Origin: an uncultured bacterium
GTDB lineage: Bacteria; Patescibacteriota; Minisyncoccia; Moranbacterales; UBA1568
Length of the DNA stretch: 47,995 nucleotides
Direction: 5' to 3'
Assembly: GCA_937864125.1 (NCBI GenBank)
Contig: CALMHZ010000084.1
Location: 1 to 47,995 of the forward strand
Shown: positions 41,925-44,783 of the stretch, piece after piece
Layout of the letters: each line of letters starts with the position of its first letter
Position numbering within the stretch: the first letter of the stretch is position 1
Program-made: the position numbers and the translations under genes
Notes under the pieces: model-generated
What the model saw: the letters and a program-made list of their open reading frames with translations, nothing else
Told to the model about the DNA's origin: nothing
Databases searched by the model: none

Positions 41925-44783
41925 TTATATCACGATATTTACGATGCGCCCCGGTACGATGATGATTTTTTTCACCGTTTTTCCTTCGAGGAAGGGCCGT
42001 ATTTTCTCCCGGATCAGAGCCTGCGCGCCCAGATCTTCTTCGGAAATATCCTGAGGGACGGTCATGAGGTCCCGCATTTTCCCGTTGATCGAAATGGTCA
42101 TGACGACGCTTTCTTCGAGCACTTTGGAATTGTCATACGCGGGCCAGACGGCGAGAAATACCGACTCCCCATGTCCGAGCGTACGCCAGAGTTCTTCGGC
42201 GATATGGGGCGCGAATGGGGAAAGCAAGAGCACGAATGTCTCGTAGCAGCTTTTGGAAACGCGCGGTTCCTTGCTCATGGCATTCGCCAGTATCATAAGG
42301 CTGCTGATAGCCGTGTTGAAACGGAAGGCGTCAATATCCTCGGTTACTTTCCCTATCGTCTTATGGAGCAAGGCTTCCAAGTGCGCCGCATCGGTTACAT
42401 CCTTTTCTTCGGAAACATGCGATCGCACGCTCCACGCCTTGTCGAGGAATCTTCGCGTACCTACCAGGCCTTCGGTATTCCAAGCGATATTCTGCGTGAA
42501 GGGTCCCATGAACAATTCATACAGCCGGAACGCATCCGCACCGAAATCCCTGATGATGTCGTCGGGATTCACCACATTCCCCCAGCGTTTGGACATTTTC
42601 CGCCCATCGGAAGCATTGATGAGTCCGACATGGACGAGCCTCTTGAAAGGTTCGTCGGTCGAGACCGCCTTGATATCGAACAAAAATTTATGCCAAAACC
42701 GCGCGTAGAGGAGGTGCCGCGTCGCATGCTCGGCCCCACCCACATAGAGATCAACCGGCATCCACTCGGCCTCAGCCCCGCCCCCGACCAATGATTTCTC
42801 GTTCATAGGATCGATGAAGCGCAGGTAATACCAGCACGATCCCGCCCACTGCGGCATGGTGTTCGTCTCGCGCTTTCCCGCACCGCCGCACTTCGGGCAG
42901 GGGGTGTTCACCCACTCGGGAATATCCGCAAGCGGCGACTCCCCTGTTCCCGTCGGCGCATACGACTCCACTTCCGGCAGTTTCACGGGGAGATCTTTCT
43001 CCGGAACCGGAACCGCGCCACAGTGCTCACAGTGGATGATCGGTATCGGCTCGCCCCAGTAGCGCTGACGCGAAAAAACCCAGTCCTTGAGGCGATACTT
43101 GGTGACCCAGCGACCTTTGACGAAGTCAGTGATTTTCTTTTTTGCCTCTTCGCTTGAAAGTCCCGTAAATTCACCGGAATCAATAAGCACACCTTCTTCA
43201 ATATATGCATTCTGCCCTCCTAAATATCGTTCAAATAAATATTGATGATGTTCCCAAGTAATTGTTTTTAATACATCTTCTTTTTTGATCTTTAGTAATT
43301 CATGCCTACCATCTTCTACTTCTGAATGAATTCTCGTGTTTGAGTTTAATATAATCTCATATGCAGGACCAACTGATCTTTGATTCTTATTTTTAGTGTG
43401 GCGATAACCCCAACATGAAATTTGCGGGTACAACCTATCACCAATTGTAAAATCAGTAAAACCGGTTTCTTCAATAATTTCTCTACTTAATGCCTGTATT
43501 TCATTTTCTCCTTCATCGATACCTCCTCCCGCAAAGTGCACATGATCTTCTGATTCTTTGATTAGATAAAAGTTGCCTTCCTTATCTCGTATAATTGGGT
43601 CAACTACCCTCCTGTGCAAAGTTTCTAATCCGTCTTTTTCTTTATTCTCATCTTTTAAAATGTAAATTCTGCTGATCACATCCCTGATGGGTAAATTGAA
43701 TTTCCTCGCAAATGCAAAATCTCGCTCATCATGCGCGGGGACCGCCATCACTGCGCCTGTGCCATAGTGTCCAAGTACATAGTCGGCCACAAACACGGGA
43801 AGTTTTTCATCGTTCGCAGGATTGATGGCAGAAACTTCTTCAAGGCGCACCCCTGTTTTTTCATGCCCTTCCGCAGTACGTTCAATTTCCGTGCGAGATT
43901 TTACTTCCTCACGGTACGATTCTACCTCACTCCAGTTTGCAACCGAACCCTTCAACTCATCAATGAGTTTGTTCTCCGGGGCGAGTACGCAGTATGTCGC
44001 TCCAAAAAGTGTATCGGGGCGTGTAGTAAACACTGTTATAACCTTATCACTTCCATCTATTTTGAAATCTATCTCCGCACCCTCGCTCCGTCCGATCCAA
44101 TGGCGTTGCTGCGCCTTGATTTCCTCTGACCACTCAAGTTCCTTCCGGTCCAGTCCTTCGAGCAACCGATCGGCATACGCCGTCATGCGAAGCACCCACT
44201 GCCGCATGGGTTTCTGCTCGACAATCGTTCCGCATCGCTCACATGCTCCGTCGTCGAGATCCTCATTCGCGAGCCCGGTTTGGCATGACGGACACCAATT
44301 GATCGGCTCGTCGGATTCATAGGCGAGTCCTTTTTCGAACATCTGGAGGAATATCCATTGCGTCCACCGGTAATACCGGGGATCGGTGGTATTGATTTCC
44401 CGATCCCAGTCATAGGTGAAACCGATAGCGTCGAGCTGTCTCTTATAAGTAGCGATGTTATTTTCGACCGCGCGGGATGGATGCACTTTATGCTTGAGGG
44501 CAAACTGCTCGGCGGGCAAGCCGAAGGCATCCCACCCCATCGGATGGAGTACGCCGAAACCCTGCAGCTGCTTCGCTCGCGCTACCACATCGGTCGCGAT
44601 ATATCCCTTCGGATGCCCCACATGCAAGCCCAAGCCCGACGGATAGGGAAACATATCCAGGACATAAAACTTTTTCGGGCGCGCATATTGCTTGAAAATG
44701 GCTTTATCTTGCCATAATTTTTGCCAATAAGGCTCTATCGTCTTTGGGCTGTATCGTGATTCCATAGGAAAAAAAGATGGCAC
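41925..44783 (-). CDS. leuS: leucine--tRNA ligase carrying an inserted Nudix-hydrolase domain
   Basis: HIGH (HVGHPKG), CP1 editing motifs (TTRPDTLFGATY, VPAHDERDFAFA), KMSKS (KMSKRWG). At 952 aa it is about 100-150 aa longer than typical bacterial LeuRS, because of the insertion at residues ~371-521. Confidence 0.92.
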   Translation of the reverse strand: MPSFFPMESRYSPKTIEPYWQKLWQDKAIFKQYARPKKFYVLDMFPYPSGLGLHVGHPKGYIATDVVARAKQLQGFGVLHPMGWDAFGLPAEQFALKHKVHPSRAVENNIATYKRQLDAIGFTYDWDREINTTDPRYYRWTQWIFLQMFEKGLAYESDEPINWCPSCQTGLANEDLDDGACERCGTIVEQKPMRQWVLRMTAYADRLLEGLDRKELEWSEEIKAQQRHWIGRSEGAEIDFKIDGSDKVITVFTTRPDTLFGATYCVLAPENKLIDELKGSVANWSEVESYREEVKSRTEIERTAEGHEKTGVRLEEVSAINPANDEKLPVFVADYVLGHYGTGAVMAVPAHDERDFAFARKFNLPIRDVISRIYILKDENKEKDGLETLHRRVVDPIIRDKEGNFYLIKESEDHVHFAGGGIDEGENEIQALSREIIEETGFTDFTIGDRLYPQISCWGYRHTKNKNQRSVGPAYEIILNSNTRIHSEVEDGRHELLKIKKEDVLKTITWEHHQYLFERYLGGQNAYIEEGVLIDSGEFTGLSSEEAKKKITDFVKGRWVTKYRLKDWVFSRQRYWGEPIPIIHCEHCGAVPVPEKDLPVKLPEVESYAPTGTGESPLADIPEWVNTPCPKCGGAGKRETNTMPQWAGSCWYYLRFIDPMNEKSLVGGGAEAEWMPVDLYVGGAEHATRHLLYARFWHKFLFDIKAVSTDEPFKRLVHVGLINASDGRKMSKRWGNVVNPDDIIRDFGADAFRLYELFMGPFTQNIAWNTEGLVGTRRFLDKAWSVRSHVSEEKDVTDAAHLEALLHKTIGKVTEDIDAFRFNTAISSLMILANAMSKEPRVSKSCYETFVLLLSPFAPHIAEELWRTLGHGESVFLAVWPAYDNSKVLEESVVMTISINGKMRDLMTVPQDISEEDLGAQALIREKIRPFLEGKTVKKIIIVPGRIVNIVI
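43221..43673 (-). other. in-frame Nudix-domain insertion within leuS (residues ~371-521), AT-rich
   Basis: Nudix box GGIDEGENEIQALSREIIEETGF (residues 420-442, nt 43458-43526) fits Gx5Ex7REUxEExGU exactly. By hand count, 43261-43320 has 16/60 G+C versus 40/60 for 42901-42960. Confidence 0.8.

Follow-up and report, generated by a model that had tools for sequence, protein, structure and literature searches.

The window, a 47,995-nt contig of an uncultured bacterium of the Patescibacteriota (Moranbacterales), carries a leuS gene for a bacterial-type leucyl-tRNA synthetase (LeuRS), and the editing domain of this enzyme is interrupted in frame by what is predicted to be a Nudix hydrolase domain (Table 1). 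The ORF comprises 952 aa counted from a GTG codon, albeit the true start is probably Met7 at 44765. Its product scored 995.4 bits against NCBIfam TIGR00396 (leuS_bact; equivalog cutoff 548.4), and the AF2 model of the full-length protein reached a pLDDT of 89.8 and a pTM of 0.81. As the sequence-only reading of this DNA had stated, the ORF is intact and retains the HIGH and KMSKS signatures together with the CP1 editing motifs, here HVGH, KMSKR, TTRPDT and GTG...AHDERD. In an alignment of 62 LeuRS sequences, both insert-bearing and insert-free (A2), the synthetic and editing motifs were invariant regardless of the insert, including residues T253, T254, D257, T258, G341, T342, G343, H351, D352, R354 and D355 of CP1. 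With all CP1 editing-site motifs intact, the LeuRS is predicted to be competent in editing.

Table 1. Features of the leuS locus in the window (aa numbering from the GTG codon).
Feature	Position	Strand	Basis
leuS, bacterial-type leucyl-tRNA synthetase	41925..44783	(-)	ORF, TIGR00396, 1H3N match E=1e-225, AF2 model
HIGH signature (HVGH, aa 54-57)	44613..44624	(-)	H54, G56, H57 invariant in A2
Non-cassette segment, aa 221-640	42864..44123	(-)	nearest relatives are LeuRS group C (P0015/P0057-like), unlike the remainder of leuS
CP1 editing domain, N-terminal 75% (aa 227-372)	43668..44105	(-)	PF13603 profile positions 1-142 of 185
Low-GC3 tract (codons 238-548)	43140..44072	(-)	essentially the entire CP1, cassette being the most AT-rich core
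T-rich editing motif TTRPDT (aa 253-258), in CP1	44010-44027	(-)	
GTG...AHDERD editing motif (aa 341-355), in CP1	43719-43763	(-)	
Nudix cassette (aa 373-523, 151 aa)	43215..43667	(-)	1H3N borders, insert-free relatives, PF00293, AF2, Foldseek, GC
Nudix box GGIDEGENEIQALSREIIEETGF (aa 420-442)	43458..43526	(-)	fits Gx5Ex7REUxEExGU; catalytic E435, E438, E439
CP1 C-terminal part and return into catalytic core (aa 524-565)	43089..43214	(-)	alignments of 1H3N and relatives
KMSKS signature (KMSKR, aa 729-733)	42585..42599	(-)	K729, M730, S731, K732, R733 invariant in A2

The LeuRS of the window is of the same family as the enzymes of T. thermophilus (1H3N/2BYT) and E. coli (4AQ7/3ZGZ) and has its domains in the same order (HIGH, Zn module, CP1 containing the T-rich/GTG/Asp site, KMSKS, anticodon-binding and C-terminal domains). 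It lacks the leucine-specific domain of the T. thermophilus enzyme (Tt ~580-636). In the alignment to 1H3N, residues 10-372 correspond to Tt 3-364 and residues 524-724 to Tt 374-579, so that the 151-aa cassette stands in place of a 9-residue surface loop of CP1 (Tt 365-373); in close insert-free relatives the loop has 6 residues. An insert of about 150 aa had been proposed at 43221-43673, which was correct in size and 6 nt off in position. PF00293 (NUDIX) matched the region with 34.9 bits in the context of the whole protein and 38.4 bits with the cassette alone (gathering score 21.1), and the match, which had been expected between LeuRS hits, sits nested within the PF13603 editing-domain match. 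The Nudix box, as had been noted, is a textbook one with all catalytic Glu.

Structure prediction agreed with the profile match: the cassette folds as a Nudix domain with a pLDDT of 95.9 when modelled alone and 90-96 within the full LeuRS. A Foldseek search of PDB with the cassette model returned 440 entries at E<=1e-3; the 50 listed were Nudix hydrolases without exception, headed by 2AZW (TM 0.75), the Aquifex Ap4A hydrolase 3I7U (TM 0.70-0.80), NudI, RppH and MutT1. A profile of the cassette aligned with 2AZW from end to end (E=3e-13). Judged from both sequence and model, the insert is a genuine, complete Nudix domain, in frame within an intact LeuRS and near the C-terminal end of CP1. The cassette has the fold, size and canonical box of 2AZW (an uncharacterised MutT/nudix protein of E. 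faecalis), 3I7U, NudI and RppH, with a sequence identity of 16-22% to these small enzymes; they are free-standing, whereas the cassette sits within a loop of a different enzyme. ApnA hydrolases are among its top structural neighbours. No second Nudix gene was found elsewhere in the window.

The same architecture recurs in other Patescibacteria. The majority of the best 120 LeuRS homologues have a PF00293 domain; in dozens of them, patescibacterial proteins of 940-960 aa, it lies at the same CP1 point, and an exhaustive HMMER search matched the cassette to 195 cluster representatives across Patescibacteria. Eighteen of the 20 long cassette hosts checked were LeuRS, and some long LeuRS hosts carry two or three Nudix, Ser-hydrolase or HAD modules. 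A word-index search with the insert alone missed this family and returned only P0001 and P0002, the only true stand-alone relatives found, which resemble the cassette mainly in the Nudix box; the LeuRS hosts emerged from the exhaustive HMMER and full-length searches. The cassette of the window belongs to a type, hereafter type A, that a GTDB scan with the close cassette set A3 detected in 15 GTDB species. One copy lies on a contig using TGA as a Gly codon: P0126 looked like a free-standing cassette but was rejected as such, as its flanks encode a LeuRS broken by TGA codons only; the contig thus uses genetic code 25.

When inserts were extracted from the homologues by MAFFT alignment columns, the insertion point was identical in all aligned insert-bearing sequences, namely after P[IV]xxV[IV]S and before xxA[YF]xxxG. 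Among related leuS genes, many carry an insert in this loop and others have it empty. Elsewhere the loop holds unrelated, non-Nudix inserts of 111-124 aa without a Pfam match, and among LeuRS that are ~90% identical in their core it is either empty or occupied by at least five unrelated inserts. In the large LeuRS-Nudix family, which as far as sampled is confined to Patescibacteria/CPR, inserted domains can be exchanged for one another at two places, the CP1 loop and a site upstream of CP1. A recent lateral domain insertion had been suggested for the window; because the architecture is found in dozens of homologues and 195 representatives, it is not a one-off recent insertion, and what survives of the suggestion is the lateral origin of this copy. 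The architecture is old and widespread with turnover of cassettes, and the copy in the window is a recent import.

We found no description of a LeuRS-Nudix protein in the literature, in line with the earlier statement that none was known. The sequence-only reading had allowed that the insertion might prove a common, already annotated LeuRS module: it is common in databases, where it is tagged automatically with PF00293, yet it is neither described nor covered by a curated model. A curated parallel, which came up in the NCBIfam scan, is NF040702 (isoleucine--tRNA ligase, N-acetyltransferase domain-containing), likewise a class Ia synthetase with an added catalytic domain. In that model a GNAT domain is the partner of IleRS, whereas LeuRS-Nudix involves another synthetase and has the added domain nested in the editing domain.

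The Nudix domain of the window looks catalytically competent, as had been predicted, on the grounds of (i) its canonical box, (ii) its modelled fold, (iii) its invariant Glu and (iv) a dN/dS of ~0.1. Positions G48, E63, E66 and E67 were invariant in 42 cassettes diverging to 21% identity; apart from Gly, no side chain was invariant except the metal-binding Glu triad, one in RE and two in EE, a pattern to be expected under selection for metal-dependent catalysis. The dN/dS values of 0.08-0.10 for the cassette and 0.04-0.08 for the LeuRS body show that the cassette is under strong purifying selection. We infer that the module would be active, hydrolysing a nucleoside-diphosphate-X compound with the help of Mg2+, and would be made 1:1 with LeuRS. 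Alternatively, the Nudix fold might be kept as a non-catalytic lobe binding nucleotide, tRNA or protein (CFIm25-like), or as a spacer modulating CP1 movement. The Nudix clan has non-enzymatic members according to an excerpt of PMC5389931, the same loop tolerates the unrelated inserts mentioned above, and the box is degenerate in several LeuRS cassettes (P0040, P0066, P0059, P0085, P0093 and P0117, with E replaced by Q, and R by A, S, T or M), so that some lineages may do without catalysis. Nevertheless, we regard a non-catalytic role as quite unlikely for the copy in question, as the box of the window cassette is fully canonical and the three Glu stand out as invariant even among cassettes as divergent as the 42 compared.

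Aminoacyl-tRNA synthetases make Ap4A and adenylates, and Ap4A is cleared by ApaH, RppH or NUDT2, of which RppH and NUDT2 are Nudix enzymes acting on ApnA. The link between this clearance and the predicted LeuRS-Nudix enzyme is conceptual only. The hydrolase is a separate protein in the known cases and is fused to the synthetase here. Homology does not fix the substrate of the cassette, because all NCBIfam equivalogs scored far under their cutoffs (RppH NF001936, 26.6 vs 118; MutT, 21.5 vs 148; NudI, 20.1 vs 95), with the RppH, MutT and NudI matches confined to the Nudix box. The nearest structures are the uncharacterised 2AZW and Ap4A/NTP pyrophosphohydrolases. An excerpt of PMC5389931 locates the tyrosine that confers ApnA specificity (native Tyr82 in human NUDT2) in the X-loop, which follows the box; a conserved aromatic of the cassette, Y460, stands at +18 from the box, whereas the hhalign alignment to human NUDT2 stops at the box and Foldseek gives no residue-level map. 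For NADH diphosphatases and ADP-ribose diphosphatases, the same excerpt names an SQPWPFPQS array or a specificity Pro downstream of the box. The SQPWPFPxS array is absent from the cassette sequence, and a Pro stands at +11 from the box, a distance for which the excerpt of PMC5389931 gives no reference position. We tentatively propose dinucleoside polyphosphates or (d)NTP-type house-cleaning compounds, for example the Ap4A/Ap3A made by the synthetase, as the likeliest substrate class, while holding even this assignment to be doubtful. Mis-activated aminoacyl-adenylates are also possible substrates; HINT hydrolyses aminoacyl-adenylates, and we know of no Nudix enzyme that does so.

The cassette differs sharply from the rest of leuS in base composition. 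Its GC content is 33.6%, against 53.0% in the remaining gene; the contrast reported by the sequence-only reading therefore stands, whereas its figures of 27% and 67% reflect extreme single 60-mers rather than averages (60-mers range over 22-45% in the insert and 33-72% in the remaining leuS). GC3 is 0.232 in the cassette vs 0.612 in the gene body, and the insert has the lowest value among 378 windows of 150 codons from 36 genes (mean 0.594, sd 0.084). The foreign-looking patch, which had been equated with the Nudix insert, is indeed foreign in composition but extends beyond it: a two-breakpoint segmentation of GC3 (2dLL = 99; at most 17.5 in 200 permutations) delimited the low-GC3 tract of Table 1, with GC3 of 0.32 inside and 0.66 outside, and the values for leuS segments S1 to S5 were 0.64, 0.42, 0.23, 0.73 and 0.68. 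The interval 42795-43730 is free of overlap with any shadow ORF of 100 aa or more. This absence, observed correctly in the earlier reading and taken there as a sign of transfer, is a trivial consequence of the AT-richness of the tract.

The nearest relatives also change along the gene. The LeuRS core is Moranbacteria-like, CP1 groups with a second lineage (group C) and the cassette with a third (group A), each segment with a bootstrap support of 500/500. Rate heterogeneity was rejected as the source of this mosaic, because the identity of the window sequence to group C equals that within group C and its identity to group A is likewise at the within-group level. The right flank of the cassette (aa 524-565) bears the group-C indel signature KKKITDF----VKGRWV, and the C-type segment reaches past the low-GC3 tract. 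The window is collinear with an insert-free Moranbacteria locus (L006) across seven genes. The closest relatives by core have the loop empty or filled with unrelated inserts; it is empty in P0008, P0024, P0025 and P0021, which are relatives by both core and synteny, and the cassette of P0005 is only 29% identical to that of the window. The latter is 58-75% identical to type-A cassettes (P0010, P0087, P0004, P0011 and others). A close donor was not found, the closest cassette match being 75% identical in amino acids and the nucleotide identity to relatives 65-76%; a scan of JGI metagenomes with the window cassette also found no relatives.

The lateral origin of the window's cassette copy is well supported by these comparisons. 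The cassette evidently came from other, more AT-rich patescibacterial leuS genes, and the surrounding CP1 was probably imported likewise; both would have entered through homologous recombination via conserved LeuRS sequence on either side. If the insert were instead ancient and vertically inherited, its AT-richness would stem only from a peripheral domain being less constrained, and nothing would have been transferred into this genome. Part of the AT bias is indeed generic to the family: in 18 of 19 further hosts the cassette has a lower GC3 than the body, and GC3 decreases from core to CP1 to Nudix in most relatives. Moreover, every pair compared shows better conservation of the type-A cassette than of the LeuRS body, so that an excess of identity alone is no proof of transfer. 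Vertical descent is nevertheless very unlikely. It is at odds with the empty loops of the core and synteny relatives and with the dissimilar P0005 cassette, as well as with the fully supported placement of cassette and CP1 inside groups A and C, respectively. Furthermore, the window cassette lies 3.2-5.2 sd under the family trend of cassette vs host GC3, and its GC3 of 0.23 is well under the GC of host intergenic DNA (0.47, i.e. 47%). In L021 the cassette has fully equilibrated with its host in GC3, and AT-richness is thus not intrinsic to the cassette; together with the intergenic GC, this case led us to reject relaxed selection as the sole cause.

A lateral import has to be distinguished from a metagenome assembly chimera, in which an AT-rich leuS middle from co-occurring Patescibacteria was joined via conserved k-mers. 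The window is a contig of a metagenome-assembled genome, the three-layer mosaic has its breakpoints inside conserved LeuRS sequence, and no independent assembly of the exact gene was found. However, a chimera would require four switches, all in frame and perfectly nested, between genomes with a nucleotide identity of only 65-76%, and the longest exact word common to any sampled relative is 26 nt, under typical final assembly k-mers. More than 80 homologues from independent assemblies (NCBI, JGI, ENA and Logan) share the junction positions, the fold predicted across the junctions is confident, and both leuS flanks are collinear with one relative genome. We therefore consider an assembly artefact highly improbable.

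That the insert is an intein-like or other selfish in-frame mobile element of no benefit to the host is extremely improbable: like inteins, the cassette shows a patchy distribution with rapid turnover at one fixed point of an essential, conserved gene, a foreign, AT-rich composition and a phylogeny discordant with that of the host, but its fold is a plain Nudix, a Pfam scan revealed no Hint, endonuclease, LAGLIDADG/HNH or mobility domain, the C-junction ...GGQN|AYIEE continues with Ala rather than Cys, Ser or Thr and intein signatures and splicing residues are absent, as is a target-site duplication, comparison with PHROGs and PADLOC for a phage or defence origin gave matches at the level of the Nudix box only, and the dN/dS and invariant catalytic residues point to a function at the host level. 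A 19-nt direct repeat (D2) at both cassette borders was rejected as a target-site duplication, as its copies agree in 14 of the 19 nucleotides, the AY codon pair is present a single time in insert-free genes, and similar repeats are common in the AT-rich stretch. Unlike an intein, the cassette is predicted to be kept in the mature LeuRS as a selected enzyme domain.

Overall, we consider it likely that the window encodes an editing-competent, Moranbacteria-like LeuRS with a nested, predicted active Nudix domain, which belongs to a large family of the CPR and whose cassette was laterally imported. Few known enzymes are as conserved as aminoacyl-tRNA synthetases, and the architecture of bacterial LeuRS is considered settled. 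That many species of one major radiation have a further, apparently active catalytic domain inside the proofreading domain poses a testable question: which nucleotide does the synthetase-tethered Nudix hydrolyse, and is the hydrolysis coupled to leucine activation or editing? CPR bacteria combine minimal genomes with the uptake of foreign DNA. The leuS locus offers an unusually clean natural case of domain-level horizontal exchange inside an essential gene, and the window copy, a nested mosaic of three lineages with unameliorated composition, bears on innovation at the protein level in CPR. The cassette loop is also a permissive insertion site for LeuRS engineering. More speculatively, and in our estimate rather unlikely, CP1 may be a hot spot for interchangeable hydrolase cassettes swapped horizontally between lineages (Nudix domains of several types, HAD, an alpha/beta serine hydrolase and domains whose fold is unknown), with the Nudix domain providing a second, cis-acting clean-up of the nucleotide by-products of the synthetase, be it Ap4A/Ap3A or mis-activated adenylates. 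If the Nudix domain does act in this way, it would represent a previously unrecognised modular layer of aminoacyl-tRNA synthetase quality control in ultra-small genomes.

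The leuS gene of the window encodes an intact bacterial-type leucyl-tRNA synthetase (LeuRS), which scored 995 bits against NCBIfam TIGR00396 (cutoff 548) and matched the Thermus thermophilus (Tt) LeuRS, 1H3N, with E=1e-225. The HIGH, CP1 editing and KMSKS motifs are all present (see the table). Unlike the LeuRS of T. thermophilus and E. coli, the window LeuRS lacks the leucine-specific domain; in the 1H3N alignment, nothing corresponds to Tt residues ~580-636, the gap falling around aa 724-729 (about 42597-42614). The ORF starts at a GTG (44783), but the alignment of homologues begins at Met7 (44765). 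The database version of the protein (P0003, 909 aa) begins 43 residues further in, and the conserved N-terminal region present in the 952-aa ORF is missing from that gene call.

Features of leuS and other loci in the window
Feature	Window position	LeuRS residues	Strand	Remarks
leuS	41925-44783	1-952	minus	One ORF
HIGH motif (HVGH)		54-57	minus	Invariant in 62-sequence family alignment
CP1 editing motif TTRPDT		253-258	minus	Invariant in 62-sequence family alignment
CP1 editing motif GTG...AHDERD		341-355	minus	Invariant in 62-sequence family alignment
KMSKS motif (KMSKR)		729-733	minus	Invariant in 62-sequence family alignment
Nudix insert	43215-43667	373-523	minus	In place of 9-residue loop, Tt 365-373 (1H3N alignment)
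Nudix box GGIDEGENEIQALSREIIEETGF		420-442	minus	Canonical
Group C segment, cassette apart	42864-44123	221-640	minus	CP1 and ~100 residues after it; core is group B
Low-GC3 tract	43140-44072	238-548	minus	Best GC3 segmentation of leuS; 0.32 vs 0.66
tRNA-Leu(CAA)	38155-38237			About 3.7 kb from leuS
Five-tRNA cluster	867-1828			Glu-CTC, Trp-CCA, Thr-GGT, Tyr-GTA, Thr-TGT
Second AT-rich patch	6989-7719			Adjoins the orphan gene and ATPase below
Tandem repeats	7053-7190			12/24/36 nt
Orphan 154-aa ORF	7255-7719			GC 0.33, GC3 0.32; no Pfam match
Orphan gene	7728-8339
T4SS coupling-protein/HerA-like ATPase	8442-10955
1580-aa ORF	11435-16177		minus	No Pfam match; GC3 0.41-0.46 in several 150-codon windows

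The loop replaced by the insert comprises only six residues in close relatives without an insert. The insert matched Pfam NUDIX with 34.9 bits in context and 38.4 bits by itself (gathering score 21.1), and the match was nested within that of the LeuRS editing domain. Modelled alone from a 42-sequence alignment, the insert reached a pLDDT of 95.9 and a pTM of 0.87, and it was still a confident, compact lobe in the full-length model (pLDDT 89.8, pTM 0.81). In a Foldseek search of the PDB with the insert, the matches listed were Nudix hydrolases only, the best being an uncharacterised Enterococcus faecalis protein (2AZW, TM 0.75), followed by the Aquifex Ap4A hydrolase 3I7U (TM 0.70-0.80), NudI, RppH and MutT1; the C. 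elegans and human Ap4A hydrolases were also among the matches. As the cassette profile was moreover aligned end to end with 2AZW (E=3e-13), we regard the insert as a complete Nudix protein of stand-alone size. The sequence-only reading, which had proposed an in-frame Nudix domain within an otherwise intact leuS at essentially these borders, is borne out in these respects.

The same reading had pointed to a recent lateral domain insertion; as a one-off event, this is not supported. Most of the best 120 LeuRS homologues considered in a full-protein search are 940-960 aa long, carry PF00293 and derive from Patescibacteria MAGs (source names Moranbacteria, Yonathbacteria, Pacebacteria and "Patescibacteria group"), under the product names "leucine--tRNA ligase" or "class I tRNA ligase family protein". 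An exhaustive HMMER search found 195 cluster representatives matching the insert, the long hosts being LeuRS in 18 of the 20 examined, and the same cassette type occurs in 15 GTDB species labelled Paceibacterota, Adlerbacteria, "Saccharibacteria" and others. Rather than a unique event, the window leuS represents one case of an uncurated family that is widespread in Patescibacteria and that automatic Pfam matches already reveal. The LeuRS-Nudix architecture is genuine and, as far as we found, undescribed, as had been surmised: no account of such a protein was found in the literature searched, including pertinent passages of the Nudix clan review (PMC5389931).

Some long hosts carry two or three Nudix modules, with a second insertion site upstream of CP1, and some also carry serine-hydrolase/alpha-beta (PF06821/PF12697/PF00561) or HAD (PF13419) modules; LeuRS of 1,130-1,200 aa with such extra modules, the Nudix copies being in tandem, are P0023, P0040, P0043, P0076, P0173, P0214, P0129, P0142, P0144 and P0203. 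A genuine stand-alone Nudix protein of 169 aa (P0002), the box of which is nearly identical to that of the window cassette, is encoded on a contig of 30% GC (L023, Logan SRR26638979_19956, 3728-4952) with a Ham1/ITPase gene directly downstream. Another candidate, the 143-aa P0126, was rejected as a stand-alone Nudix. Its contig (L022, ENA ERZ724526 NODE_428855, 616 nt) holds part of a LeuRS-Nudix gene, which has TGA at four in-frame positions and was split wrongly by the gene caller. One TGA stands at the conserved Gly of NSGEF, indicating that TGA is read as Gly (genetic code 25), the code of Gracilibacteria/Absconditabacteria.

No residue is invariant across 42 cassettes (identities down to 21%) except the first Gly of the box and three Glu, one in "RE" and two in "EE", these Glu being the metal-binding catalytic residues. 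Between closely related hosts, dN/dS was 0.08-0.10 for the cassette, not far from the 0.04-0.08 of the LeuRS body outside it. The cassette sits covalently within a loop of CP1, which is itself intact; its fold is that of a canonical Nudix domain under selection, and its catalytic triad is complete. The box is degenerate in a minority of cassettes, and non-catalytic roles are therefore possible in some lineages; that the insert is generally a non-catalytic module is nonetheless disfavoured by the invariant Glu triad, and we consider it unlikely. The cassette would rather be an active Mg2+-dependent hydrolase of a nucleoside-diphosphate-X compound, presumably present 1:1 with LeuRS as one polypeptide. 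Since the LeuRS editing and synthetic motifs are kept equally with and without the insert in the 62-sequence alignment, the Nudix domain supplements editing instead of taking its place. The insert came nowhere near the cutoff of any curated NCBIfam equivalog (RppH, MutT, NudI and others), and homology thus assigns no substrate. Dinucleoside polyphosphates or a house-cleaning (d)NTP may be candidates, pointed to by the structural neighbours (Ap4A hydrolase, NTP pyrophosphohydrolase and RppH) and also by the Ham1/ITPase gene adjoining the stand-alone relative. According to the clan review, specificity motifs sit in the X-loop that follows the box, where a Tyr marks ApnA hydrolases (PMC5389931). 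The conserved aromatic of the cassette lies at +18 (Y460, within GYRHTK), and the profile alignment to the verified human NUDT2 ends at the box, short of the X-loop Tyr region.

The insert is indeed AT-rich (33.6% GC vs 53.0% in the rest of leuS), albeit the 27% and 67% given in the sequence-only reading were local 60-mer extremes; the lack of shadow ORFs noted there is real, being a by-product of AT-richness. At third codon positions the GC fraction (GC3) drops from 0.612 in the body to 0.232 in the insert, so the break is at synonymous sites. The insert value is the lowest GC3 of 378 150-codon windows over the 36 genes of the window (mean 0.594, sd 0.084), far below the host intergenic GC of 0.47. 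The low-GC3 tract obtained by segmentation (2dLL 99 vs a permutation maximum of 17.5) takes in all of CP1 and is most AT-rich at its centre, the cassette. In most relatives, GC3 falls in the order core > CP1 > Nudix. Cassette GC3 is correlated with host GC3 in 19 other hosts (r=0.82) but is the lower of the two in 18 of them (p=8e-5), so that the AT bias is in part common to the family. The window cassette lies 3.2 sd below the cassette-vs-host trend (5.2 sd without the outlier L021), and its GC3 fits hosts with a body GC3 of about 0.33. Because the L021 cassette is fully equilibrated with its host (0.54 vs 0.52), AT-richness is not intrinsic to the Nudix domain. L021 (JAYUQG010000019.1) is the only host with cassette GC3 equal to that of the leuS body, and its cassette may be the longest-resident, fully ameliorated copy. 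Our reading is that cassettes were seeded recurrently from AT-rich lineages and then ameliorated, the window copy being among the least ameliorated.

Segment-wise comparison with three LeuRS/cassette lineages (groups A, B and C) revealed mixed ancestry in leuS. Residues 1-220 and 641-952 (catalytic core and anticodon domain) are closest to group B (P0008, P0024, P0005 and others; 83% and 71-73%), residues 221-365 and 541-640 (CP1 and the next stretch) to group C (P0015, P0057, P0049 and others; 80-83% and 85-91%), and the cassette to group A (P0010 75%, P0087 73%, P0004 and P0011 69%). Each assignment was recovered in 500/500 bootstraps, and the identities of segments in one layer rise and fall together (rho about 0.7), those of different layers being anticorrelated. 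Simple rate heterogeneity was rejected, as identities of the window LeuRS to each group equal those within the group (to C in CP1, 0.81 and 0.88 vs 0.84 and 0.89; to A in the cassette, 0.68 vs 0.66). A right-flank indel, KKKITDF----VKGRWV vs REKMMAWIEEKGLGRKS, independently marks the segment as C-type, and this segment reaches past the low-GC3 tract. Within the group C layer of this three-layer nested mosaic, low GC3 is confined to the CP1 part (0.42), aa 549-640 being GC-rich (0.73).

The window is collinear with a Moranbacteria MAG locus (L006, encoding P0008) over atpG-atpD-atpC-leuS-RNase_T-uppP-folD, at 51-80% protein identity, and the leuS loop of that locus is empty; groups A and C sit in another neighbourhood, leuS-sigma70_r4/HARE-HTH-DUF8128-YceG. 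Group B members share 91% identity over the N-terminal core, and their loops are either empty or filled, at exactly the same point, with a Nudix only 29% identical to that of the window (P0005), a second Nudix class (P0020) or non-Nudix inserts without Pfam match (P0013, P0028/P0082). The latter measure 111 aa (P0013) and 124 aa (P0028/P0082), in LeuRS with cores >80% identical to the window's. A near-identical donor was not found in the collections searched (best nucleotide identity 65-76%, longest shared exact word 26 nt). A purely vertical insert with relaxed composition is contradicted by synteny, tree incongruence and intergenic GC, and appears quite improbable. The lateral origin to which the sequence-only reading pointed is well supported for the import itself (bootstraps, synteny and GC3), but not for that part of the AT bias which is common to the family. 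An assembly chimera would presuppose four nested switches, all in frame, among genomes <76% identical at the nucleotide level, and the junctions match >80 independent assemblies, making this explanation very improbable. An intein or selfish element is hardly credible, given strong purifying selection and no mobility domain, splice junction or target-site duplication. Elsewhere in the window, the second AT-rich patch may be another imported island.

Beyond what automatic annotation already displays, the present analysis adds two kinds of evidence: selection on catalysis, which speaks for function, and signs that cassettes turn over and are laterally imported at one CP1 loop. The serine hydrolase and HAD insertions around CP1 in relatives would agree with a role linked to the chemistry of LeuRS, and also with CP1 simply tolerating house-cleaning enzymes that are useful in minimal genomes.
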